Source: a virus. From it: a stretch of DNA of 53,351 nucleotides. Positions within the stretch are counted from its first letter, which is position 1; each line of letters starts with the position of its first letter. The stretch is from the UHGV virus genome UHGV-0304279; one strand, 5' to 3'. Of this stretch, positions 1 to 53,351 are shown in pieces. The notes beneath the pieces were generated by a model. The model was not told where the DNA came from. It worked only from the letters and a program-made list of their open reading frames with translations, and ran no database searches. Position numbers and translations under genes: made by a program.

Positions 1-56
1 AATCCATTTTGGTATGATTTAGCGTGATGCAGATCACAAAATTACAAGGTGAGAAA

Positions 57-4900: not shown

Positions 4901-6035
4901 CAAAGGAGAGATAGCACGCGTAGACAAAGCAATAGCAACAGAAACGCAGGCAAGAAGCGACGCAATAACAGAAGTTAAAGCTGATCTTACAACGCTTGAA
5001 AGTAATACAAATGCCAGTGTTAGCCGTCTCGATCAGGCCATCGCTGATGAGTCAAGCGCCCGCGCCCAGGCAATATCAGGAATCAGTGCGGAGCTTGGTC
5101 TTGTTGAAAATGAGGTTGATAAAAACAGCGACGAAATAGATCAGGCGAAAGCAAGTCTACAAAACGCTTCACTTGCTCTGATCAACAACTCAATAGCGCA
5201 AAGCAAAATGAGCACTGTTATTGAGGCAAAATACAGGAAAGGCCAGACAAAAACAAAAGCGGAAATAGCAAGGATCGACACCGCAATAGCAGACGAAACC
5301 CAGGCCCGCGCGGAGGCTATAGCATCGCTTGAGGCAAATATTAATGAAAACATTTCAGCAAAAATAACAGATATATCAACGGCGCTTGCAACTCACGAGG
5401 AATCAAGTGCTGAAAAATTTGTTCAAATATCGGCATCTTTCGACGATGTAAACTCAAGCATCACGGAATGGTCACAGGCTATGGCAACGGCAGACGAGGC
5501 ATTATCAACCAAAATTGATCAGCTAACAGTTACCGTTAACGGGAACACAACAGCTATCGAGACGACATCGAAAGCATTAACTGATTTCAAAGGTGACGTT
5601 AACGCATCATATTCAATCAAGATTGCCACTGATAACAACGGCATGAAATATGCCACTGGCATGTCGCTTGGCCTGACTGGTAGCGGGACTAACGTTCAAT
5701 CGCAGTGCATTTTCCTCGTTGACCGCTTCGTGTTAATGACCGCCGCAAACGGCACATATACAACGCCTTTCTATGTCACTGGCGGCGCAATGTATGTACG
5801 TGAAGCGTTTATTAAGGACGCATCAATCACTAACGCGAAAATAGGTTCTTACATCCAATCAAATAACTATGTTTCCGGCAGCACAGGCTGGAAACTTGAT
5901 AAATCCGGTACATTCGAAAACTACGGATCAGTAAGCGGTGAAGGGGCGATGAAGTGGACGAATACAACGATCTCTGTCAGAGATGGAAATAGCGTGTTAC
6001 GCGTCCAGATTGGGCGAATTACCGGATCATGGTAG
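1983..6035 (+). CDS. tail tip / host specificity protein J (central tail fibre), with long C-terminal coiled-coil extension
   Basis: N-terminal two thirds resemble lambda gpJ throughout (N-terminus, NPAW, YCDQ.V.DG.GG.EPR.T.NAY, FGCTSRGQA.RAG.WL motifs); 1350 aa; C-terminal part is heptad-rich with an internal duplication. Confidence 0.9.
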   Translation: MSSGGGKAKTPTLINDNLYHKQFYRVLDIISEGPIYGPVNTNAPLNSVMLNDTPVTDANGNTSIPGVSVAWRNGTADQSPINGFNAIESTVMVNAQVKHDTPLVRTVSDPNVTRVRLNIGVDSLVESDSQSNQKETSVIMAIDVKPSSSSTWSSIKAVQIGPGKISGEYLEAHIINAPDEKPFDIRVRRVTADSTSDLLQNDTRWNSYSEIIDDNLSYPHTAVAGAVIDHDQYTDTPTRTYHLRGLIVDVPDNYDPETRTYSGLWLGGMKQAYTNNPAWIFRYLVKNERFGLARHAGYIDVDDGALYTLSQYCDQLVDDGYGGLEPRVTLNAYITEQMSARDLLDNIAGMFRGIALWDGQRLTVMIDAPQDPIATITNANVVDGAFTRSSISRAECYNAVIVSWTDPENGWEQSKEYVADDELIARDGYNETTMEAFGCTSRGQAYRAGKWLIETAKREPSKFTFKMARDAIHFTPGDIIEILDNNRAGARLGGRIVANNGNVITVDKVDSEYITAGDTISLLDSDGKFKKHQITGISGNKITLAAAPAWIRNGTVFAVSTEAAKPVLCRITSVAETENNSVYTIEAAQHDPNKQAVVDEGAIFEINNDTLNHFRVPNIENLKVVNIGSETVQCRATWETQTTTHRMTFEIRIYNTDGAVVKSYETTKYSYDFYGIDAGAYSLGVRGRNDTGMKGAESIVDLVIGAPAAPVGVNWVPGVFQATVYPISKTTLTTDTSYEFYYAGENQITDPAIITTSAQFTGRGYQWTFGGMNTGHTYYVYVRTRNAFGVSDFVEASGKPTEDFDEITDYVTKDVMESEQFKEMISDIKDLGDRTDIVEGATEDLKIATEDLKADTDTLKKDTEDLYKKVEENADEIGKHEVRIDSLEVSSENVNNELAQTKASLQNASLALINNSLAQTNTRVTLTAQYKKGRNETKAQIDRIDNVIAEEKKATAESLETITAEISTMDSNIKGEIARVDKAIATETQARSDAITEVKADLTTLESNTNASVSRLDQAIADESSARAQAISGISAELGLVENEVDKNSDEIDQAKASLQNASLALINNSIAQSKMSTVIEAKYRKGQTKTKAEIARIDTAIADETQARAEAIASLEANINENISAKITDISTALATHEESSAEKFVQISASFDDVNSSITEWSQAMATADEALSTKIDQLTVTVNGNTTAIETTSKALTDFKGDVNASYSIKIATDNNGMKYATGMSLGLTGSGTNVQSQCIFLVDRFVLMTAANGTYTTPFYVTGGAMYVREAFIKDASITNAKIGSYIQSNNYVSGSTGWKLDKSGTFENYGSVSGEGAMKWTNTTISVRDGNSVLRVQIGRITGSW
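4686..5213 (+). repeat. internal direct duplication inside J coiled-coil region (copies about 4686-4729 and 5170-5213)
   Basis: Near-identical about 44 nt segments encoding KASLQNASLALINNS(L/I)AQ, each followed by a similar about 50 aa block. Confidence 0.7.
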
Positions 6036-6085
6036 AATTAAGGGGCCGACTTGTTCGGCCTCAGTTTTATTATGGAGGTGTAATA

Positions 6086-6397
6086 ATGGCTACTTTCGGC
6101 GTAGCGACCTGGGACGCCAATGGCAATCCTAATAACTACGGTATCAAACCTTCCGTCGTAGTTGGCTATATTTCCTTGTCTTCCGGGCAAGTATCCGGAA
6201 CATATTCTTTTACCGTTCCAACCGGGTGCAAATTATCTTATGGCGTGGCGCTTGATTATGGTACAACATCGTCAACGCGCAGAAAGATCAGCATTTCCGG
6301 CGGCACTGTTTCCATTTCCTCCGCAGGGGATACGGTAGGGGCTGATATATGGCCTGCGTCACAATGTGACCTGATTATTTTTACGGAGATTGCATAA
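6086..6397 (+). CDS. hypothetical protein, MATFG paralogue 1
   Basis: ATG at 6086 with RBS GGAGGT; shares the N-terminal MATFG..(L/W)..NGN motif with the next gene. Confidence 0.5.
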   Translation: MATFGVATWDANGNPNNYGIKPSVVVGYISLSSGQVSGTYSFTVPTGCKLSYGVALDYGTTSSTRRKISISGGTVSISSAGDTVGADIWPASQCDLIIFTEIA

Positions 6398-6996
6398 TGG
6401 CTACTTTTGGCGCTTATTTACGCCTAGATAATGGCAATATTTTTGTAACGCCGGATTCTACCCCGATGTGCTTATATTCGCGGGTGGCATTAAATTCCAG
6501 CCAACAACAAACGATCGCTGTACCCAACGGTAAGCCTGTAATGGTATTCATCAAAAACACCGACGACACCGCTACTGGGCTTGCCTATCGCGCATCATCA
6601 TCTACGGTAGTGATCCCGCCTGGCAACGGGTATGCGTATATATTCAGCATCTTCCCGCCATCGCTGCCGAAATGGGGGATGGCTATCTGGAACGCTTCCG
6701 GGGAACTGGTACTGACCAACGAATCAAAAATATTAACCGACCTTGTTACAGTAGGCACGGCGGGATCGAGCGGGGGGATTTATATCGATCAAACATTATC
6801 AGGATCTTATGCGGTAGTGCCTCAGATATTGGGGGCCGCTGTAGGTATGGGTTCCGCAACAATATATACAGAATCATACTACAACGGCAGCAATACACGA
6901 ATTCGCGGGAAGATGGTTGGTAGCTTGCAACAGATTTACGGTTACATTAATCACGGGAACGCTATCACCGCCATTAAAACCGACGCCTATGATTAA
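6397..6996 (+). CDS. hypothetical protein, MATFG paralogue 2
   Basis: Start overlaps the stop of the previous gene (TAATG); N-terminal paralogy; glycine/serine-rich. Confidence 0.5.
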   Translation: MATFGAYLRLDNGNIFVTPDSTPMCLYSRVALNSSQQQTIAVPNGKPVMVFIKNTDDTATGLAYRASSSTVVIPPGNGYAYIFSIFPPSLPKWGMAIWNASGELVLTNESKILTDLVTVGTAGSSGGIYIDQTLSGSYAVVPQILGAAVGMGSATIYTESYYNGSNTRIRGKMVGSLQQIYGYINHGNAITAIKTDAYD

Positions 6997-7232
6997 TTCA
7001 GTTCCGGGCAATCCGTTTTCTTGAAGTGGTCAACGCTTACCCATTGGAAGTTAAACGGATACCCGGCCTTAACCATTTTATGACCGCCAACATCCGCGAC
7101 ACCGAAGACTGCAACCGCATATTCATTACCTCCAGCCTGATAAGTTGCCGTGCATTCACGTTTCGGCATATCAGCGCAACCAACCATACCAGCGACCATT
7201 GCAGCTATAGCGATATTTTTAAAGCCTTTCAT
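6993..7232 (-). CDS. small lipoprotein (moron), candidate superinfection-exclusion factor
   Basis: Minus-strand ORF inside the tail operon; signal peptide with lipobox-like VGC (MKGFKNIAIAAMVAGMVGCAD); RBS GGAGG upstream. Confidence 0.5.
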   Translation of the reverse strand: MKGFKNIAIAAMVAGMVGCADMPKRECTATYQAGGNEYAVAVFGVADVGGHKMVKAGYPFNFQWVSVDHFKKTDCPELN

Positions 7233-7307: not shown

Positions 7308-7362
7308 ATACATTTTGTATAAGCCAGAAATGTAACGCAGATCACAAAATGGTAAAATTACC
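7308..7362 (+). promoter_or_regulatory. restart promoter-like region upstream of the tail fibre gene
   Basis: Contains ATACATTTTGTATA and GATCACAAAATGG motif copies plus extended -10-like TGgTAAAAT at 7350-7358. Confidence 0.4.
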
Positions 7363-16206: not shown

Positions 16207-16440
16207 CTATTTTTTGATTTTTAAGATGACATAAACGTTAGCTTGTTGGCGTCCATGCAATTTACTCCTGCAAATGGCTATTACTCCGGCCTGTTCCAGA
16301 GATCGGATCGCTAGCTTAACACTTTGCCGACTCACTCCCAACCTGTCAGCAAGCATGATAAGTGATATTTGATAACCTCCCGTCCGGCAATGCACAGCCA
16401 GCAGATCGTAAACTTTACGCTCAGTTTTGGTTAATTTCAT
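16207..16440 (-). CDS. small winged-helix DNA-binding protein
   Basis: 77 aa with HTH-like segment LADRLGVSRQSVKLAIRSLEQAGVI. Confidence 0.45.
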   Translation of the reverse strand: MKLTKTERKVYDLLAVHCRTGGYQISLIMLADRLGVSRQSVKLAIRSLEQAGVIAICRSKLHGRQQANVYVILKIKK

Positions 16441-17782: not shown

Positions 17783-17840
17783 GTTTACAGAATGGAGTTT
17801 TTAGATCAAGACTTGAAAAATACATTTTGTGACTTGTATC
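17783..17840 (+). promoter_or_regulatory. candidate promoter/operator region upstream of the repressor gene
   Basis: Motif copies GTTTACAGAATGG (17783) and TACATTTTGTGAC (17821); -35-like TTGAAA (17811-17816) and -10-like TATCAA (17835-17840). Confidence 0.35.
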
Positions 17841-17868
17841 AAACTTTTTGAGGTTATAGGGTAGCGAC

Positions 17869-18516
17869 ATGAAAACAAAATGGTATGACTTAGCAAAGCA
17901 GCTCATGCGAGCGCAAGGCATGAGCCAGGATTCACTCGCGGATCTCATGGGGATAACTAAAGGCGGCCTGTCACACTGGCTTAACGGTCGCCGCGAGCCA
18001 AATCTTGAAGATATTGCGCGGATTATGCGGGCACTTGGTCGTCGGCAGTTCACTGTTACCCATGATGGAATGGTCATTGATGATTCTGTTTCTAACACGT
18101 TACCGGGAGCGCCGCAGCGTGATTTAGGCAGTTACCCGGTTGTTGACTGGAAGGACACAGTAAACAATATGGAAGATACAAGGCGATCAACATTACCACA
18201 CGTTACGACTAGCGTTATTTGTTCAGATGATAGTTACTGGCTGGTTGCTAAAGGTGAATCAATGAACGCGCCGCAGGGGTTGAGCATCCCTGCCGGGACG
18301 ATGATACTTGTTGACCCACACGCGCCAGCTATCGATGGAAAGCTGGTTATAGCACAGCTTGAGGAAGGGCAAATACCGACGTTTAAACAGTTGATTATTG
18401 ATGGAGGTCAAAGGCTTTTACGTTCGCTTAACCCGCTGTATCCACCAATCCCCATGAATCCTGAATCGAAAATCATAGGCGTGGTGGTGGACGCGAAGAT
18501 CGTAAACCTGCCATAA
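17869..18516 (+). CDS. CI-like repressor (HTH XRE plus S24 LexA-like peptidase domain)
   Basis: N-terminal HTH (SQDSLADLMGITKGGLSHWLNGRR); C-terminal S24-like segment with GESM and a later Lys; 215 aa. Confidence 0.8.
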   Translation: MKTKWYDLAKQLMRAQGMSQDSLADLMGITKGGLSHWLNGRREPNLEDIARIMRALGRRQFTVTHDGMVIDDSVSNTLPGAPQRDLGSYPVVDWKDTVNNMEDTRRSTLPHVTTSVICSDDSYWLVAKGESMNAPQGLSIPAGTMILVDPHAPAIDGKLVIAQLEEGQIPTFKQLIIDGGQRLLRSLNPLYPPIPMNPESKIIGVVVDAKIVNLP

Positions 18517-18626: not shown

Positions 18627-18669
18627 GTATACAAAATGGATTGACTCGGTGTATCACGGGGCGTATATT
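18627..18669 (+). promoter_or_regulatory. candidate sigma70 promoter of the rightward operon with upstream motif copy
   Basis: -35 TTGACT (18641-18646), 17 bp spacer, -10 TATATT (18664-18669); motif GTATACAAAATGG immediately upstream. Confidence 0.5.
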
Positions 18670-18804
18670 TCGAGGCAAAGGAGGTAGCAAGGCAGGGGAA
18701 AGAAGGTTACTTGCTCTTTAACAATCTGGTCAGCCGCTGGAAGTGCGGCAATTAATGAAGATGATTTTTATTAAGTATCATCATGGATATAAGGAGATCA
18801 GATT

Positions 18805-19095: not shown

Positions 19096-19244
19096 TACAA
19101 AATGTAAACTTTCAAAGGTGACATTATGGTTGTTCAGGCGCTTCAATTCAAACTGGCTGTAGCGGAAATGCTTCACGATGCCGAAATGTGGAGCACCGCG
19201 AATAAAGCTTTATATGTAGTGTTAACAGCGAGGGAGATTAAAGG

Positions 19245-22515: not shown

Positions 22516-22555
22516 ATATACATTTTGTATTGTGGTCGCATATCCGTTTTGTAAG
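22516..22555 (+). promoter_or_regulatory. intergenic motif pair
   Basis: ATATACATTTTGTAT (22516-22530) and CCGTTTTGTAAG (22544-22555). Confidence 0.35.
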
Positions 22556-26050: not shown

Positions 26051-26131
26051 GTTTACAAAATGGCGTCATTGTGTGATGAGGATCACATAATGGCGCTTTG
26101 CACCTTGTTTGCGTGTATCCGTTTTGTATAC
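26051..26131 (+). promoter_or_regulatory. intergenic regulatory region with motif copies and a CRP-like palindrome
   Basis: GTTTACAAAATGGC (26051-26064); TGTGA-N6-TCACA (26072-26087); CCGTTTTGTATAC (26119-26131) with -35-like TTGTTT and -10-like TATACT. Confidence 0.4.
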
Positions 26132-34602: not shown

Positions 34603-34699
34603 CCACGGATACTGGCGCAAGGTTGGTGATTTGTAACCATAATCGCACATAAAAAACAAATAGATTAAAATATTTCCTAACAATGCGAAATTGTAATTA

Positions 34700-34721
34700 C
34701 CCGGCCACGTGCCGGGTTTTT
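34700..34721 (+). terminator. terminator-like hairpin immediately upstream of the lysis cassette (candidate tR'-like element)
   Basis: CCCGGC-cacgt-GCCGGG followed by TTTTT. Confidence 0.55.
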
Positions 34722-34740
34722 GCTTGTTGGAGGTAAATCT

Positions 34741-34941
34741 ATGTTCGACAAAATACGGGAGGCGTGCGCGTATGCAGTAGGGGCCGTAACGGCCTTTTTC
34801 GGTGCGATAACCATCAATGATGTTGCTGTCTTTGTGGGTATCTTATCAACCGCAGGTACATTTGCCGTTAACTATTACTTCAAATCACAGGAGAACAAGC
34901 GAGCGCAAGAGGAACACGACGCGCGAATGGGGAATAAGTAA
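34741..34941 (+). CDS. holin (small, two TM helices; likely pinholin partner of the SAR endolysin)
   Basis: 66 aa with two hydrophobic helices and a charged C-terminus; RBS GGAGGT; directly upstream of the endolysin. Confidence 0.65.
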   Translation: MFDKIREACAYAVGAVTAFFGAITINDVAVFVGILSTAGTFAVNYYFKSQENKRAQEEHDARMGNK

Positions 34942-35433
34942 ATGATTAGCCAATCGCTGAAGAACAAGATTATTGCTGCGGCGGCTGGTGGGGCGATCGC
35001 TATTGCGGCTGTGATGGTTAAACCATTAGAAGGCGTGGAGTACGATCCGTATCGTGATGTTATCGGTGTATGGACTGTATGTTATGGTCATACCGGAAAA
35101 GACATCATGCTTGGTAAGACTTACACGCAATCAGAATGCGATGCTTTGTTAAATAAAGATCTCCACAAAACCGCAAAAGCGATCGACCCCTATATTAAAG
35201 TCGAAATATCAGATTTTACCCGCGCGGCGCTTTATTCATTCGCCTATAACGTAGGCGCTACCAACTTTAAAACATCAACATTATTGAAGCTACTCAATGA
35301 CGGCAAGAAATCGGAAGCGTGCGCACAGCTTAAACGCTGGATCTATGCTGGTGGTAAGCAGTGGCAAGGGTTAATTAACCGTCGTGATATTGAATATGCC
35401 GTTTGCGAATGGGGTGAAACATGGACAAGGTAA
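34942..35433 (+). CDS. SAR endolysin (T4-lysozyme-like, GH24) with N-terminal signal-anchor-release domain
   Basis: Catalytic-region motifs (EG..YDPY.D..G.WT.CYGHTG) preceded by a Gly/Ala-rich weakly hydrophobic N-terminal helix ([18 protein letters not shown]). Confidence 0.8.
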
Positions 35434-48298: not shown

Positions 48299-50638
48299 AT
48301 GGCTACCAGTGTAGGTACAATTTATTACGAAGTTGACGCAAAAACAGGACAACTTCTTGTAGCACAACGACAGGCAGACCAAGCCTTTGACCGTATAGAG
48401 CGCGGTGCTAAACAGGCCGATCGCCAGGTAAACACACTGAAAACATCAATCAAAGCACTGACCAGGGTTATCCATCTGCTAATTGCTGCCGAGGCCGTTA
48501 GACAGTTTATGGAAATGGCAGAGCAGGCCAAAATGCTACGCGTCAAAATCAAAATGCTGACAGGCAACGCGGAATCTGCCGGGCGGGTTTTTGATGGTCT
48601 GAAAGAAATATCCAGGGAGACGGGGCAGAGCCTGAAAGATACTGGCGAATTATGGCAAGGCCTGGCTATCTCACTAAAAAACACCTCCGCTACGGAAGGG
48701 CAATTGCTTAACCTGGTTGGCACCATTCAGAAGATGGGCGCGTTAGGGGGCGCGTCAGCAGAGCAAATGTCAAACTCTATGCGCCAGTTCCGACAGTCTA
48801 TTGACGGCGGCGTACTTCGCGCAGAAGAATTCAACAGCTTGCTTGAAAATACGCCGACCATCGTACAAACAATGGCCCGCAAGATGGGATTATCAATGGG
48901 CCAGTTCCGCGCCGAAATGCTGGACGGCAAGATCACGGCAGAGAGGATGGTTAACGCAATCCAGGCGGCTACGCAGGAAACAAACGAGCAGTTCGCACAG
49001 TTGCCGCGCACATCCGGCATGGCTATCAATGAACTAAAAGTCGAGGTAATGGGTCTGGTGGAACAACTGGACGATCTTTTCGGTGTATCAGATGGCGTAG
49101 TCTCAGCTATCGACTTGATCACAAAAGGAGTTAATGGGCTAGGTGAGGGCGCTAAATTCGCTAAAACCTGCTTTGATACGCTCAAAACGGCTGGTAGCGA
49201 ATTCATCGACATGTTTGATGATGTGGCTGTGAAGGCTGGCGAGGTGGCAGAGAAGATCATCGCAATGGTGACGCCAATCAAGGCGCTAATGGATGGCTAT
49301 AAATGGATGAAAGAGATTGTCGATGAACGCAAGGAAGAACTAAACAGCAACAACGAGAAAAAATTTGGCCCTACCATCGGTAAATTCATGACGTTTAAAA
49401 ACGACATTGAAAAGGCGACCGCCGCTTATGACGAGCTTATGCAGAAACAGGCAGAAGCCAACGACGGAGCTATTACCGGATTCGATAAGCCAGTTGATAA
49501 GCCGAAAAAACAGAAAAAAGAGAAGAAATCGGAAGCTGATCGGCTTGGAGACAAGGGCATAAGCGTTTCTGATCAGTACAACAAAGACGCCGCCGCCATG
49601 CGCAAAGCGTTAGAGAACGGCAAGGCCATTGATGCTGCGTTCGCCCAGGGTAAAATCACACTCCTTGAGTACCGCGCCGCGCAAAAAGGGATCGGCAAGG
49701 AACTGAAAGAAGAATTAGCGCAGATCCCGGTAGATGAATTGCGTGATAAATGGTCGCAAATAGTTAGCCCAATGGACCAGCTAAAAGGCGAAGTTGACCC
49801 TATCCAGCAGGCGCAAAATGAATGGGCCGTCCGTAAGCAAATGCTTATCGACCTGGGCGCTACAGAAGCACAACAGAAACAGGAATTATTAGCCTATGAG
49901 CAGCAGATCCGCGATCTGAAGTGGGAACAGTGGCAGGCGCAAAGCCAGACAAACGGCCTGATCGGTGATTGCGTTAATGGCCTTAAAGGTGGCATGAGCA
50001 ATGCGCTTGTTGGCCTGCTTAACGGTACTCAATCATTGAGCGATGTTTTTGCTAACTTAGGCAGCAATATACTTGGGAATATCGGTAACAGACTTTCGGA
50101 CATAGCTGCCAACTGGATAGCAGATCAAATCATGATGGAGACACAAAGCAAAGCCACGCAGGCCAGCACAACGGCAAGCGCGGTTGCCGCTCAGGGAAGC
50201 ATTGCGGCGGCGGCGGCCCCGGCGGCGGCAGCGACAGCGGCATCAACTGGCGGTAGCTGGGCGGCGGCTGGCTCGGCGGCGCTTACTGCGATCATGTCGC
50301 TGGCAACATCCATTTTCGGCGGCGGGCGCTTTAATGGTGGTAGCGTAATTGGTGGCAATATGTACCGCGTCGGGGAACATAACAGGCCGGAGCTATTCCA
50401 GACGTCTAACGGCAACCAATACATGATCCCCGGCGAGAATGGCAGGGTTATCCCGGGGCGTGATATTGGCGGCGGCGGCGGTATCAGTATGCCTGTTTAC
50501 ATCGACATTCAAACCACAAACGGATTTAGTGACGAAGACAGCCGCAGACTTGAACAGACAATGGAACGTGTAGCCATGAAAATGATAACAAGGGAATCGC
50601 AAAGACCTGGCGGGATGTTGCAACCGCGCCGCAAATAA
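48299..50638 (+). CDS. tail tape measure protein
   Basis: 779 aa, helical N-terminal two thirds, Gly/Ala-rich C-terminal region; position. Confidence 0.85.
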   Translation: MATSVGTIYYEVDAKTGQLLVAQRQADQAFDRIERGAKQADRQVNTLKTSIKALTRVIHLLIAAEAVRQFMEMAEQAKMLRVKIKMLTGNAESAGRVFDGLKEISRETGQSLKDTGELWQGLAISLKNTSATEGQLLNLVGTIQKMGALGGASAEQMSNSMRQFRQSIDGGVLRAEEFNSLLENTPTIVQTMARKMGLSMGQFRAEMLDGKITAERMVNAIQAATQETNEQFAQLPRTSGMAINELKVEVMGLVEQLDDLFGVSDGVVSAIDLITKGVNGLGEGAKFAKTCFDTLKTAGSEFIDMFDDVAVKAGEVAEKIIAMVTPIKALMDGYKWMKEIVDERKEELNSNNEKKFGPTIGKFMTFKNDIEKATAAYDELMQKQAEANDGAITGFDKPVDKPKKQKKEKKSEADRLGDKGISVSDQYNKDAAAMRKALENGKAIDAAFAQGKITLLEYRAAQKGIGKELKEELAQIPVDELRDKWSQIVSPMDQLKGEVDPIQQAQNEWAVRKQMLIDLGATEAQQKQELLAYEQQIRDLKWEQWQAQSQTNGLIGDCVNGLKGGMSNALVGLLNGTQSLSDVFANLGSNILGNIGNRLSDIAANWIADQIMMETQSKATQASTTASAVAAQGSIAAAAAPAAAATAASTGGSWAAAGSAALTAIMSLATSIFGGGRFNGGSVIGGNMYRVGEHNRPELFQTSNGNQYMIPGENGRVIPGRDIGGGGGISMPVYIDIQTTNGFSDEDSRRLEQTMERVAMKMITRESQRPGGMLQPRRK

Positions 50639-50644
50639 CACTAA

Positions 50645-50670
50645 GGCCGCTATAAGCGGCCTTTATTTTA
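50645..50670 (+). terminator. bidirectional terminator between the tape measure gene and the antisense cassette
   Basis: GGCCGC-tataa-GCGGCC followed by TTTATTTT. Confidence 0.65.
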
Positions 50671-50955
50671 CATGGTAAGGATATAAATTAAACAGCACAG
50701 GAATGCGGGCGCGGCGAAGTCGCAAACGCTAGCCATATTCCATGCTTTTGGTAAAAAACCACCATACCACGGCATTCTTTCTCGTTTCCCTCCGCAAAAT
50801 TCCGCTATGTAACGATATTCAGCCTGTGTGTGTTCCCGTGCAAAAAAGAATGTACATCCAATCAGGCCGCCAGTGAGATAATCACCAGTAAGCAGGCCGA
50901 TAACAACCTGTATAGTCGCCGCAGCCAGTGCGTGACCAATAACGGTTAAATCCAT
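50668..50955 (-). CDS. small membrane protein (moron)
   Basis: Two or three hydrophobic segments; RBS GGGAGG. Confidence 0.5.
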   Translation of the reverse strand: MDLTVIGHALAAATIQVVIGLLTGDYLTGGLIGCTFFFAREHTQAEYRYIAEFCGGKRERMPWYGGFLPKAWNMASVCDFAAPAFLCCLIYILTM

Positions 50956-50957
50956 CG

Positions 50958-51143
50958 TTAATCCTCCCGATCGTTCTCAAATGTGCCATCTACAAATTTT
51001 TGCAGCCCGGCGATAAGTTGTGTTGCCTGCGATTTTTCAATTACTATGGTTTCAGTCCCCATAAGTTCGGTTATCCACAGCCGACCATCCTCATCAAGAT
51101 CTAACCTAACTCCGTAACATAACTCTGTTTCGTCAATAATCAT
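50958..51143 (-). CDS. hypothetical acidic protein (moron)
   Basis: 61 aa ORF coupled to the downstream membrane protein gene. Confidence 0.4.
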   Translation of the reverse strand: MIIDETELCYGVRLDLDEDGRLWITELMGTETIVIEKSQATQLIAGLQKFVDGTFENDRED

Positions 51144-51253
51144 TTTTCATCCTATAATCTTCCGTTACGTGCGACGTAACCCCCTGCCGAACATCACTAA
51201 CCAGATGTTCCAGATCTCCCGCTAGGTATATTTCTCCTCCTCCATATTCCACC

Positions 51254-51508
51254 TCACTTATGAGCGCCTTTCACTCCGCAATGACGGTTGTATTCCAGGT
51301 GATCGATAATTAACCAAATATTCAAATCTTCACTGAACAGCCGCCAGTCAGGATTGATATCGAATTTAAAGCCATAACCATCACGTAATTTTTTGGGGCG
51401 GGCTTCTTTTTTCAGGAAGGCGTTAAGCAACTTCTTGCCTTTCTTGATTACCCGTTCCTGTGCATTCTTTTGTGCTTTCAGGTTTTTTTCGATAGTTACC
51501 AGTTTCAT
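51254..51508 (-). CDS. hypothetical basic protein (moron), possible toxin-like partner
   Basis: 84 aa, Lys-rich N-terminus; RBS GGGGTGAG; lies 17 nt downstream of a 51 aa ORF. Confidence 0.45.
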   Translation of the reverse strand: MKLVTIEKNLKAQKNAQERVIKKGKKLLNAFLKKEARPKKLRDGYGFKFDINPDWRLFSEDLNIWLIIDHLEYNRHCGVKGAHK

Positions 51509-51525
51509 AACTCACCCCATCGTCC

Positions 51526-51681
51526 TTAGTTAAGCGCCCTCAGGAAGAAATCCCGGTATTCATCATCCTTCGCGTTCATCATGAATTGACCGTATTTGAA
51601 TGCGTCGTCGAAACCCTTAACAATTGCTACTTCCACTTGCTCGAATGCGTTGTTTAGCATCACTACTACATAGCTACTCAT
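51526..51681 (-). CDS. hypothetical small protein (51 aa), first gene of the antisense cassette
   Basis: MSSYVVVMLNNAFEQVEVAIVKGFDDAFKYGQFMMNAKDDEYRDFFLRALN; RBS GTGAGG. Confidence 0.4.
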   Translation of the reverse strand: MSSYVVVMLNNAFEQVEVAIVKGFDDAFKYGQFMMNAKDDEYRDFFLRALN

Positions 51682-51754
51682 TTTTGGGCCTCACTTGCTG
51701 GTACCGCTTTTCTTCTTGCTTCCTGTATACGGCTTGTTGCTTCATGTGTGAATA

Positions 51755-51837
51755 CATATTGTAAACTAGCTATAATTCTTGTGACGAATATCTCATTTTT
51801 CGCGTAGAAGCGCGTAAAGATATATACAAAATGTAAC
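51755..51837 (+). promoter_or_regulatory. restart promoter-like region upstream of the gpM-like gene
   Basis: ATACATATTGTAAAC (51755-51769), perfect -10 TATAAT (51771-51776), ATATACAAAATGTAAC (51822-51837). Confidence 0.45.
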
Positions 51838-51851
51838 TTACAGGAGGGGGT

Positions 51852-52205
51852 ATGCCGGAAGTGTTCAGATGGACACCACAGAGAAGCTACAGCGTAAACA
51901 GTGAGCCTAACGTGTCCGTTATCAAGCTGGGCGATGGCTATGAACAGCGCCAGACAAAAGGGATTAATCCACTACTTGACAGCTATACGCTGGTCTTTAA
52001 AGGTACGAGCGCCGGATGCGGTGACGCCGGAAACGTGGCGCTCCAGGTTGACGCATTTTTAAGAGCACGTTGCGCGGTCGAGGCGTTTTACTGGACGCCA
52101 TCTACAGACGGAGTGAAAAGGCTTTTTGTATGCCGAAAGTGGAGCATGGCGAAAGACGGCCCGGTATGCACTCTGAATGCAACGTTTGAACAAGTTATCA
52201 ATTAA
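51852..52205 (+). CDS. minor tail protein M (lambda gpM-like)
   Basis: Resembles lambda gpM end to end (FRW.P, GDGY.QR, FLWTP, C.KWS, F.AEFEQV.N); RBS AGGAGGGGG. Confidence 0.8.
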   Translation: MPEVFRWTPQRSYSVNSEPNVSVIKLGDGYEQRQTKGINPLLDSYTLVFKGTSAGCGDAGNVALQVDAFLRARCAVEAFYWTPSTDGVKRLFVCRKWSMAKDGPVCTLNATFEQVIN

Positions 52206-52218
52206 TGGAGAAGTCAAT

Positions 52219-52404
52219 ATGTATGCTATTTGTGTAGTTGACCGCACGGGCGCTTTTACATTATTTGACGACTATGAAATCAAAGATCTTACCGTAAAGG
52301 CTGACAATGGCGAGATCTGGTATCTTCATGACGTTGGTGACGGGTATGTTGGGTGCAGGTCGAGAGAGGGAAGGGAAGTTTTATTTTTGGTTGATAGCGT
52401 ATAA
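52219..52404 (+). CDS. hypothetical protein
   Basis: RBS GGAGAAG. Confidence 0.4.
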   Translation: MYAICVVDRTGAFTLFDDYEIKDLTVKADNGEIWYLHDVGDGYVGCRSREGREVLFLVDSV

Positions 52405-52504
52405 ACACGACCCCGCGCGAAGCGGGGTTTATAGTGTCGATAGCAGAATGCATAACAATCCAATAATGATAATAATCATCTCCAGAACGTAATGTTCGCA
52501 CATC

Positions 52505-52753
52505 TCATAACGCCCCCTTCAAATATGTCAATCCCTTATCAGTGACGAATGAATGGTTTACCTGGTTTTCATCCGTCATGATGATGAATAACTTTTCCTG
52601 TAGGTATTTCGCTTTTGGGTACAGCGTTAAACAGACCTGGTACAAAACCCCGCGCTCAATCAGCAAATCAATAAATTCGTGCTCATGATAACCGATAAGG
52701 CGGGCGGCCTGTTTCAACGTGTACACATAGCCACCGTGATTGCGCCGCGTCAT
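52505..52753 (-). CDS. hypothetical protein (moron; possible HTH)
   Basis: RBS AAGGTGG. Confidence 0.45.
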   Translation of the reverse strand: MTRRNHGGYVYTLKQAARLIGYHEHEFIDLLIERGVLYQVCLTLYPKAKYLQEKLFIIMTDENQVNHSFVTDKGLTYLKGAL

Positions 52754-52762
52754 ATTGCCACC

Positions 52763-53113
52763 TTATTTGCCGAACGCTCCCAGGTTGTCGATACAGAAAT
52801 CTTTTGCCGCTTTTTCGTATTCACGTTTTGCTTGCGGATCATCTGCCGGGAAACCTTTTGCGTGTATTTCACCAGGACAAGCCTGATCCATAGAGTTGGC
52901 AAAATTAACATTGAAGTTAACATTAATATCTTTCGGGTTCATATCTTCCACCTCATCTGGTATTTGCACCGGAACAACCACAAAATCACGCGCACTAGAC
53001 CAACAACGCAGCAATTCACGACCATCATCACGCGCGGCGTTGTATGTATCGAATAACCCTATGCGCTCCCATTCGCATTTATCAGTGAACACCTCTAATC
53101 TGTATTTTTGCAT
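52763..53113 (-). CDS. hypothetical protein (moron)
   Basis: ATG 53113 with RBS AAGGGTAG. Confidence 0.4.
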   Translation of the reverse strand: MQKYRLEVFTDKCEWERIGLFDTYNAARDDGRELLRCWSSARDFVVVPVQIPDEVEDMNPKDINVNFNVNFANSMDQACPGEIHAKGFPADDPQAKREYEKAAKDFCIDNLGAFGK

Positions 53114-53117
53114 AATG

Positions 53118-53297
53118 CTACCCTTCATTTATTGGCCTGATCCGGTAGCCGATAATGCGGCTATCTTTCTCCATAAGTTCAAAAGCCGTATCTATAGCAT
53201 CATCAGGATTATCGAAATCAGACGTTATGTTTTCATTTCCAGTCATGAAAACCGTAAGCCTCCATAACTTACCGCCGCCATTGCTGCATCGCGCCAT
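53118..53297 (-). CDS. hypothetical protein (moron)
   Basis: ATG 53297 with RBS GGAGGT. Confidence 0.4.
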   Translation of the reverse strand: MARCSNGGGKLWRLTVFMTGNENITSDFDNPDDAIDTAFELMEKDSRIIGYRIRPINEG

Positions 53298-53351
53298 TTT
53301 GTTTACCTCCATTCGTTTGAGTAAAATATACATATTGTAAAAACCGCGATC
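53293..53351 (+). promoter_or_regulatory. motif-containing region at the window end, continuous with positions 1-56 upstream of the gpL-like gene
   Basis: GCCATTTTGTTTAC and ATATACATATTGTAAAA here; CCATTTTGGTATG and GATCACAAAATT at 4-43. Confidence 0.35.

Follow-up and report, generated by a model that had tools for sequence, protein, structure and literature searches.

An antisense three-gene cassette with a stand-alone KilAC domain between tail genes M and L of an mEpimmI-type Escherichia coli phage

We analysed the 53,351-nucleotide (nt) virus genome UHGV-0304279, taken at its full length and hereafter called the window, and focus here on three small genes that lie on the minus strand between its tail genes M and L. 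We find that these genes, which we name A, B and C, make up a conserved accessory operon that is autonomous and ends in a gene for a free KilAC domain, an assignment that we regard as secure. The genes are known already: related records carry them as hypothetical proteins and a 'putative antirepressor', and the core proteins that PMC11893012 (2025) identified by manual analysis include one named 'antirepressor KilAC-like'.

A conserved antisense operon between M and L

The window represents the complete genome, in circularly permuted form, of a temperate E. coli siphophage of the mEpimmI type (mEp021-like), which belongs to the phage group described in PMC11893012. Its late region has ~85-88% nucleotide identity to the Escherichia phages MagusPhagus, mEp010, mEp044, mEp554 and mEp021. 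Since the MagusPhagus sequence runs unbroken through window 53351|1, the ends of the window adjoin each other in the real molecule. L (57-761, PF05100) lies at the window start and is followed by K, I and J; the tape-measure gene (48299-50638) lies near the window end, where M (51852-52205, PF05939) is the last tail gene. M and L are adjacent in lambda. Here they flank the cassette, and the antisense position between M and L that a preliminary description of this DNA had given is correct. The description also let the cassette span the window junction. None of the three coding regions crosses it; the cassette promoter region does.

The three minus-strand open reading frames (ORFs) were found where that description had drawn them. 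A (53118..53297) encodes 59 amino acids (aa; isoelectric point (pI) 4.6; phrog_29559, E 1.2e-8), B (52763..53113) 116 aa (pI 4.7; phrog_38567, E 2e-42), and C (52505..52753) 82 aa (pI 8.7) that make up a stand-alone ANT/KilAC domain. Direct reading of the sequence bore out the ribosome-binding sites as well, all on the minus strand: GGAGGT (53305-53310) stands 7 nt ahead of the ATG of A at 53297, AAGGGTAG (53118-53125) serves B and overlaps the stop codon of A, and AAGGTGG (52758-52764) serves C and overlaps the stop codon of B. Gaps of 4 nt (A-B) and 9 nt (B-C), with each downstream ribosome-binding site over the upstream stop codon, are typical of a coupled operon. A program listing of ORFs gave longer starts for A (71 aa from 53333) and B (121 aa from 53128). 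The shorter starts of the preliminary description are better supported, because B homologues begin MQKY, because ATGGCG is kept at the start of A in the 10 closer loci, and because the ATG at 53333 falls inside the predicted -10 region.

Substitutions against relatives concentrate at the third codon position. Counted at positions 1/2/3, they were 12/6/37, 13/5/35 and 14/10/41 in three comparisons of B, 3/1/7, 2/1/10 and 4/3/14 in three comparisons of C, and 6/3/15 in one comparison of A. The reading frames are intact and syntenic in more than 40 genomes, and A, B and C each match a PHROG family. On sequence evidence, A, B and C are real genes under purifying selection.

The cassette has its own predicted promoter and terminator. 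A scan of the rejoined junction placed a -10 element, TATATT (53325..53330, minus strand), 17 nt from a -35 element, TTGATC (53348..53351 and 1..2, minus strand), which lies across the junction. We compared 14 related loci, in which L shares 77-96% identity (mean 87%) with the L of the window. TTGAT, the 17-nt spacing and TATATT were invariant in all 14, even where the adjoining A coding sequence could not be aligned. At the other end, a GC-rich hairpin (52410..52428) is predicted to act on both strands, ending the cassette transcript and the opposite-strand transcript of M and a 61-aa ORF. Its RNA folds reach -19.7 and -22.4 kcal/mol (z -3.6 and -4.6). A terminator scan reported it for the minus strand alone; in mEp021 the corresponding place is annotated TERM_11 and TERM_12, terminators on both strands. 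The 61-aa ORF (52219-52404, plus strand; acidic, phrog_3249) is conserved, sits directly 3' of M and before the terminator, and shows third-position bias (2/1/12). ORF and hairpin thus also lie between M and the cassette, and the preliminary description omitted both. A scan of 50500-53351 found no RNA family in Rfam.

We then looked at how the cassette is distributed. B and C are present in 7/7 sequenced mEpimmI phages, and among 35 complete E. coli genomes with this L gene, C lies next to L in 34. Only E. coli MS 21-1 departs from this: there an apparently complete prophage has L 124 base pairs (bp) after M and the cassette is cleanly missing. The missing DNA extends from immediately behind the stop codon of M to the 5' leader of A; the 61-aa ORF is lost along with the cassette, and the divergent promoter region is retained. 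This clean natural deletion shows that the cassette is accessory, though nearly universal: it is dispensable for an intact-looking prophage.

Genes 71-74 of mEp021 and their counterparts in mEp010, mEp013, mEp044, mEp515, mEp554 and MagusPhagus are orthologous cassettes, likewise on the opposite strand between M and L and with the same promoter region and terminator. Their C proteins are 89-96% and their B proteins 78-84% identical to those of the window, whereas the window A is a different variant with 38-39% protein identity. mEp021 has an extra 75-aa gene between B and C that the window lacks. More widely, B and C are separated by one additional gene in some relatives, and in some a small ORF follows C; no family matches were obtained for these additions.

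These properties recall the moron concept of lambdoid phages (Hendrix/Juhala). Like lambdoid morons, the cassette is extra DNA between genes that adjoin in lambda, with its own promoter and terminator (as judged by pattern and conservation), a lower G+C content (44.5% versus ~51% in M and L) and one relative without it; the accessory, moron-like character seen earlier is upheld on these grounds. Unlike typical morons, it is nearly universal in its lineage and holds three coupled genes, and its expression from the prophage is putative.

A free KilAC domain behind two acidic paralogues

The preliminary description recognised no family among the three proteins. This fails for the last gene: C matches ANT/KilAC (Pfam PF03374) with 27.4 bits against a gathering cut-off of 25.3 (E 4.5e-6, profile positions 24-102 of 108). 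Homologues of C carry precomputed PF03374 matches, and the ANT/KilAC name appears in RefSeq and in the mEp021 record. Relatives are 73-96% identical to the window copy (mean pairwise identity 0.86), and the more distant matches, in Vibrio and Cronobacter, are solely the C-termini of larger Rha/Ant proteins. Compared with the 'AKxLxL' and 'TxKG' motifs of CreP and P1 KilA, C has a nearly invariant TDKG and a partial match, AARLIG. The two-domain architecture of antirepressors is absent, as C lacks an N-terminal AntA/B, BRO-N, KilA-N or Rha domain.

A helix-turn-helix (HTH) had also been guessed for this gene. The structural model of C (predicted local distance difference test, pLDDT, 77) finds its best matches in the PDB among winged HTH domains of the MerR/Xis type, which lends the guess weak support, but these matches are not significant (E >= 0.2); an HTH in C is thus plausible but unproven. 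PDB sequence searches with C, as a single sequence or as a profile, gave nothing significant and found no solved KilAC structure.

What is known of KilAC domains comes from other systems. In Listeria AriS, the KilAC domain is by itself enough to inhibit SOS induction (PMC9043618), and the KilA-type C-terminal domain of Phi11 Gp07 keeps the growth inhibition seen in E. coli (PMC5944126). CreP, a stand-alone KilAC protein of Acinetobacter baylyi ADP1, is bacteriostatic and causes filamentation, so that a KilAC domain on its own can act as a bacteriostatic inhibitor of division (bioRxiv 10.1101/2024.01.05.574328). In AriS (from Listeria phage phi10403S), Phi11 Gp07 and P1 KilA, KilAC is joined to a second domain (AntA/B, BRO-N or KilA-N), and the genes lie in early regions; C, in contrast, is the KilAC part alone and lies in the tail module. 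By description, C resembles CreP in build: each consists of one KilAC domain and lacks an N-terminal partner domain, both are small (82 aa for C, 103 aa for CreP), and TxKG is common to the two. They differ in setting. CreP is chromosomal and repressed via creA by an effector of the CRISPR (clustered regularly interspaced short palindromic repeats) system, whereas C is phage-borne and follows two small acidic genes.

The two acidic proteins are related to each other. An hhalign comparison matched A to residues 3-50 of B (E 5e-5, probability 66%); on this alignment, A is a paralogue of the N-terminal domain of B. Residues 1-52 of B form a variable beta-beta-alpha-beta domain, which is followed by a linker and a conserved tail (residues 73-116) with the motif SMDQxCPGEIHxxGFPADDP..K.EYEKAAKDFC. 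Mean pairwise identity is 0.52 in the N-terminal domain and 0.87 in the tail. AlphaFold gives residues 1-50 a pLDDT of ~94, and past residue 50 the values for 10-residue blocks are 43-61. One other lineage has a fusion of an A-like domain with B, which is 172-192 aa long and lies directly upstream of C. In the few loci where A type was compared with B N-terminal type, the A type changes while the B type stays constant.

The B family is narrow. A set of 5.8 billion sequences held 55 homologue clusters, every source-named one from E. coli; a full HMMER profile search with the family recovered 11 representative clusters among 1.84 billion proteins; and among sequenced phages B is confined to the seven mEpimmI genomes. 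A has 8 homologue clusters (77-100% identity). At the level of fold, the beta-beta-alpha-beta unit resembles many phage proteins of ~55 aa, some of them classed DUF7336: Foldseek against BFVD gave probability 1.00, E 2e-3 to 5e-2 and target template-modelling (TM) scores of 0.74-0.84 over ~54 residues, with three DUF7336 proteins among the matches. The likeness is at fold level only, as A and B have no DUF7336 Pfam match at E <= 1. The literature searched held no publication on DUF7336. Fold matches of A and B to solved structures were generic, and their only PDB sequence matches, to designed triosephosphate isomerase (TIM) barrels, were judged an artefact because the score is a sum of four weak beta-alpha repeats. 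The sizes of 59 and 116 aa had suggested a HicA/HicB-like toxin-antitoxin pair. We rejected this because neither HicA nor HicB matches were found and because A is paralogous to the N-terminus of B, which is not a HicA-type relationship.

Two side observations concern these families. P0072, a 56-aa protein encoded at 6001-6171 of a 58-kilobase ENA metagenome contig (L008), consists solely of the conserved B tail. Its gene lies in an unrelated phage, surrounded by small genes without annotation, and its neighbours have no similarity to A or C; this stand-alone copy suggests that the B tail is an independent module. Homologues of A in RefSeq E. coli prophages (L005 2083-2250, L006 2309-2497 and L007 2591-2746) are labelled 'transporter'. 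They are soluble, acidic and 52-62 aa long, and the label looks like an annotation error.

Predicted control elements and a proposed function

A palindrome, TACATATTGTA (53329..53339), lies over the spacer and -10 element of the cassette promoter and is kept in 11 of the 14 related loci. We regard it as a candidate operator. Its consensus, TACAWWWTGTA, has 6 exact copies in the window against 0.2 expected (7309-7319, 19096-19106, 22519-22529, 51753-51763, 51825-51835 and 53329-53339), and may be the operator of a phage regulator. The copies lie upstream of a lipoprotein gene, in both antisense tail-cassette promoter regions and just before M, with further ones after an N-like gene and in the early region; a near-copy stands just upstream of the CI-like repressor gene.

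Within the same 110-bp region between A and L we found a site resembling those of the host regulator CRP, CGTGATGCAGATCACA (23..38), which fits TGTGA-N6-TCACA with 1 mismatch. Its half-sites are conserved across loci and its 6-nt spacer is variable; the most divergent lineage, L015, has a perfect TGTGA-N6-TCACA, and mEp021 has the site at the same position. We applied the criterion for a class I CRP-dependent promoter, a TGTGA-N6-TCACA centred near -61.5. With the start assumed 7 nt after the -10 element, the centre falls at about -61.5 to -63.5, depending on the lineage; for the site at 23..38 it lies ~62-64 nt upstream of the predicted start. The window holds 9 such sites with at most 1 mismatch, against 1.4 expected, among them 23-38, 7331-7346, 17828-17843, 26072-26087 and 51780-51795. 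Each of the three antisense units of the late region has such a site upstream, as does the repressor gene, and mEp021 keeps several of the positions; where the window has the perfect site at 26072, mEp021 has a terminator annotated. The binder could be host CRP or a phage protein of similar specificity. The pairing of CRP-like site and palindrome recurs upstream of a ParE-like cassette and of the lipoprotein exclusion gene, and near-copies of both adjoin the CI-like repressor gene.

Two further elements touch this region. An extended -10-like element facing L, TGgTATGAT (10..18, plus strand), is a pattern match only; TATGAT is intact in 9 of 10 closer loci and the upstream TG in 8 of 10. As a promoter, it would diverge from that of the cassette, back-to-back, and might serve L-K-I-J independently of Q; the CRP-like site would overlie its start. 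A PL-like promoter (18632-18680, plus strand; CAAAATGGATTGACT-17 nt-TATATT) downstream of the repressor gene has a 13-nt stretch, the spacing and the -10 element in common with the cassette promoter; the stretch is not conserved in the cassette promoter of mEp021.

We tentatively propose, with a probability of about 0.38, that C is a host-directed Kil- or antirepressor-like effector bound and controlled by B, together with A. The cassette would be transcribed from its own sigma-70-type promoter, against the late tail genes, to the terminator hairpin. Its expression would probably be helped by CRP with cyclic AMP and gated, again probably, by a phage regulator at the TACA-N3-TGTA palindrome over the promoter, and it would be opposed by late transcription that reads through. 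Because mEp021 has a gene for a Q-like late regulator, late transcription probably passes terminators and would collide with that of the cassette. The target of C would then be a host protein, in RecA/SOS or the division machinery, and its role would not be anti-phage defence, while the acidic paralogues A and B would bind C and restrain or direct it. B may do so via its C-terminal tail, which is conserved and probably disordered, much as an acidic antitoxin binds a basic toxin. We infer the target of C, the interaction of C with A and B, and every regulatory step.

Four observations point to such a partnership. The products run acidic, acidic, basic (pI 4.6, 4.7 and 8.7). The B tail (0.87) and C (0.86) are equally conserved, while the B N-terminus and A vary. 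The tail is conserved yet looks disordered alone, as proteins that fold on binding often do. Finally, the A-B fusion of one lineage lies directly upstream of C. The neighbouring antisense cassette, where an acidic 51-aa gene precedes a basic ParE-like gene, is also cited in this logic. The arrangement resembles type II toxin-antitoxin systems in its acidic upstream genes, basic downstream gene and tight coupling, and in the folded N-terminus and unresolved conserved tail of B; it differs in that the upstream partner has no recognised DNA-binding domain. Pfam, NCBIfam and PADLOC gave no toxin or antitoxin family for A, B or C.

Several points weigh against the proposal. C covers ~75% of the Pfam model length and scores just above the cut-off, and its weak MerR/Xis winged-HTH fold matches fit DNA binding equally well. 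The extra gene between B and C in some relatives makes the coupling of B and C look looser. Promoter hexamers alone are at chance level in the region (7 promoter-like sites versus 6.3 expected), so that the support for the cassette promoter comes from conservation and not from the pattern match, and the centre of the CRP-like site depends on the assumed transcription start.

A more detailed form of the proposal is a long shot in our estimate. The cassette would be a 'Kil and anti-Kil' module, in which free KilAC shuts down RecA/SOS or division, the DUF7336-like acidic partners neutralise or release it via the B tail, and CRP and a phage regulator exert control. If this were true, prophage expression of such a module might be part of the reason that most mEpimmI phages, as reported in PMC11893012, are not inducible by ultraviolet light, and DUF7336-like small phage proteins would gain their first function. 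Induction, lysogen fitness and co-resident prophages would be affected if C dampens SOS or division from the prophage; if the function is routine, the cassette is an ordinary moron. Phages of the mEpimmI type are reported to be as common as lambdoid phages in human gut E. coli collections, almost all of their accessory genes are uncharacterised, and few non-structural units of the late region are as conserved as this cassette. With its two or three genes, it is a compact natural system for studying how free KilAC acts and is controlled.

We also considered the function suggested by the preliminary description, namely lysogenic conversion or defence: A, B and C, expressed from the prophage, would exclude or abort other phages or alter a host phenotype. 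The antisense position in the tail module, the cassette's own promoter and terminator and its lower G+C content all fit, as does its dispensability for an intact-looking prophage. The lipoprotein exclusion gene (PMC11893012) and the ParE-like cassette have the same pairing of CRP-like site and palindrome upstream, and A and the N-terminal domain of B vary as arms-race proteins do. However, a search of PADLOC-DB 2.0 returned nothing at E <= 1 for A, B, C or five neighbours, NCBIfam likewise gave nothing usable, and no Pfam defence match was found. No enzymatic or membrane domain is present, and KilAC is not a known defence effector but points to modulation of the host or of regulation, of the antirepressor or Kil type. 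Finally, 34/35 prophages and 7/7 phages carry the cassette, unlike variable defence islands. The defence suggestion is thus not supported, and we hold it to be unlikely.

Somewhat less likely again is a secondary immunity or antirepressor operon, in which C would inactivate the CI-like repressor (17869-18516) and A and B would regulate C. In the immI region of P22 (mnt-arc-ant), which also sits among late genes, the antirepressor gene has its own promoter and is preceded by small regulatory genes. The cassette resembles this layout, with an antirepressor-type gene after small genes, its own promoter and a place among late genes. KilAC is the C-terminal domain of classic antirepressors and relatives of C are so annotated; near-copies of the palindrome and the CRP-like site adjoin the repressor gene, suggesting linked control, and the -35 region of the cassette has 13 nt in common with the PL-like promoter. 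Against this, C lacks the rest of Ant, including any AntA/B, BRO-N, Rha or KilA-N domain, and A and B have a beta-beta-alpha-beta fold unlike the ribbon-helix-helix of Arc/Mnt-type repressors. The cassette and junction region contain no LexA box (CTGT-N8-ACAG, <= 1 mismatch), the prophage without the cassette looks intact, and which domain carries antirepressor activity is not established (PMC9043618).

Instead of the effector that we propose, C might be a small winged-HTH transcription factor acting on the TACA-N3-TGTA palindromes, that of its own promoter included, and so co-regulating several phage promoters, with A and B as unrelated small early proteins. The best PDB matches of the C model are DNA-bound MerR-family and Xis domains, and the palindrome is enriched at promoter-like positions, the cassette's own among them. 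We consider this possibility very unlikely, as those matches fall short of significance and as the L015 lineage keeps C although its palindrome is degenerate; moreover, the CI-like repressor, a Cro-like protein and a MarR-like protein (16207-16440) are equally good candidates for binding it. That the ORFs are decaying or non-functional filler is scarcely credible: a few B homologues are frameshifted or truncated (P0048, P0049, P0052 and P0071) and one prophage has lost the cassette, but third-position bias, frames kept across genomes and invariant promoter elements argue otherwise.

Other antisense units

A second antisense cassette (50668-51681, minus strand) lies between the tape-measure gene and M. 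It begins with the acidic 51-aa gene (51526-51681, minus strand; pI 4.5), followed by the basic gene for a ParE-like toxin domain (51254-51508, minus strand; 84 aa, PF24732, E 9e-11, pI 9.95). Genes of 61 and 95 aa come after the ParE-like gene, and a bidirectional terminator lies at 50643-50663. By its sequence, this unit looks like a toxin-antitoxin pair with cargo.

The MS 21-1 prophage (L021) has an antisense gene just upstream of its tape-measure gene (34692-35351), annotated 'type VI secretion system-associated protein TagO', and a gene in the portal position annotated 'anti-CBASS protein Acb1 family protein'; both are record names only.

Downstream of J, the lipoprotein gene (6993-7232, minus strand) encodes a product beginning MKGFKNIAIAAMVAGMVGC... 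with a lipobox. It is presumably the Lpp superinfection-exclusion gene described for mEpimmI phages in PMC11893012.

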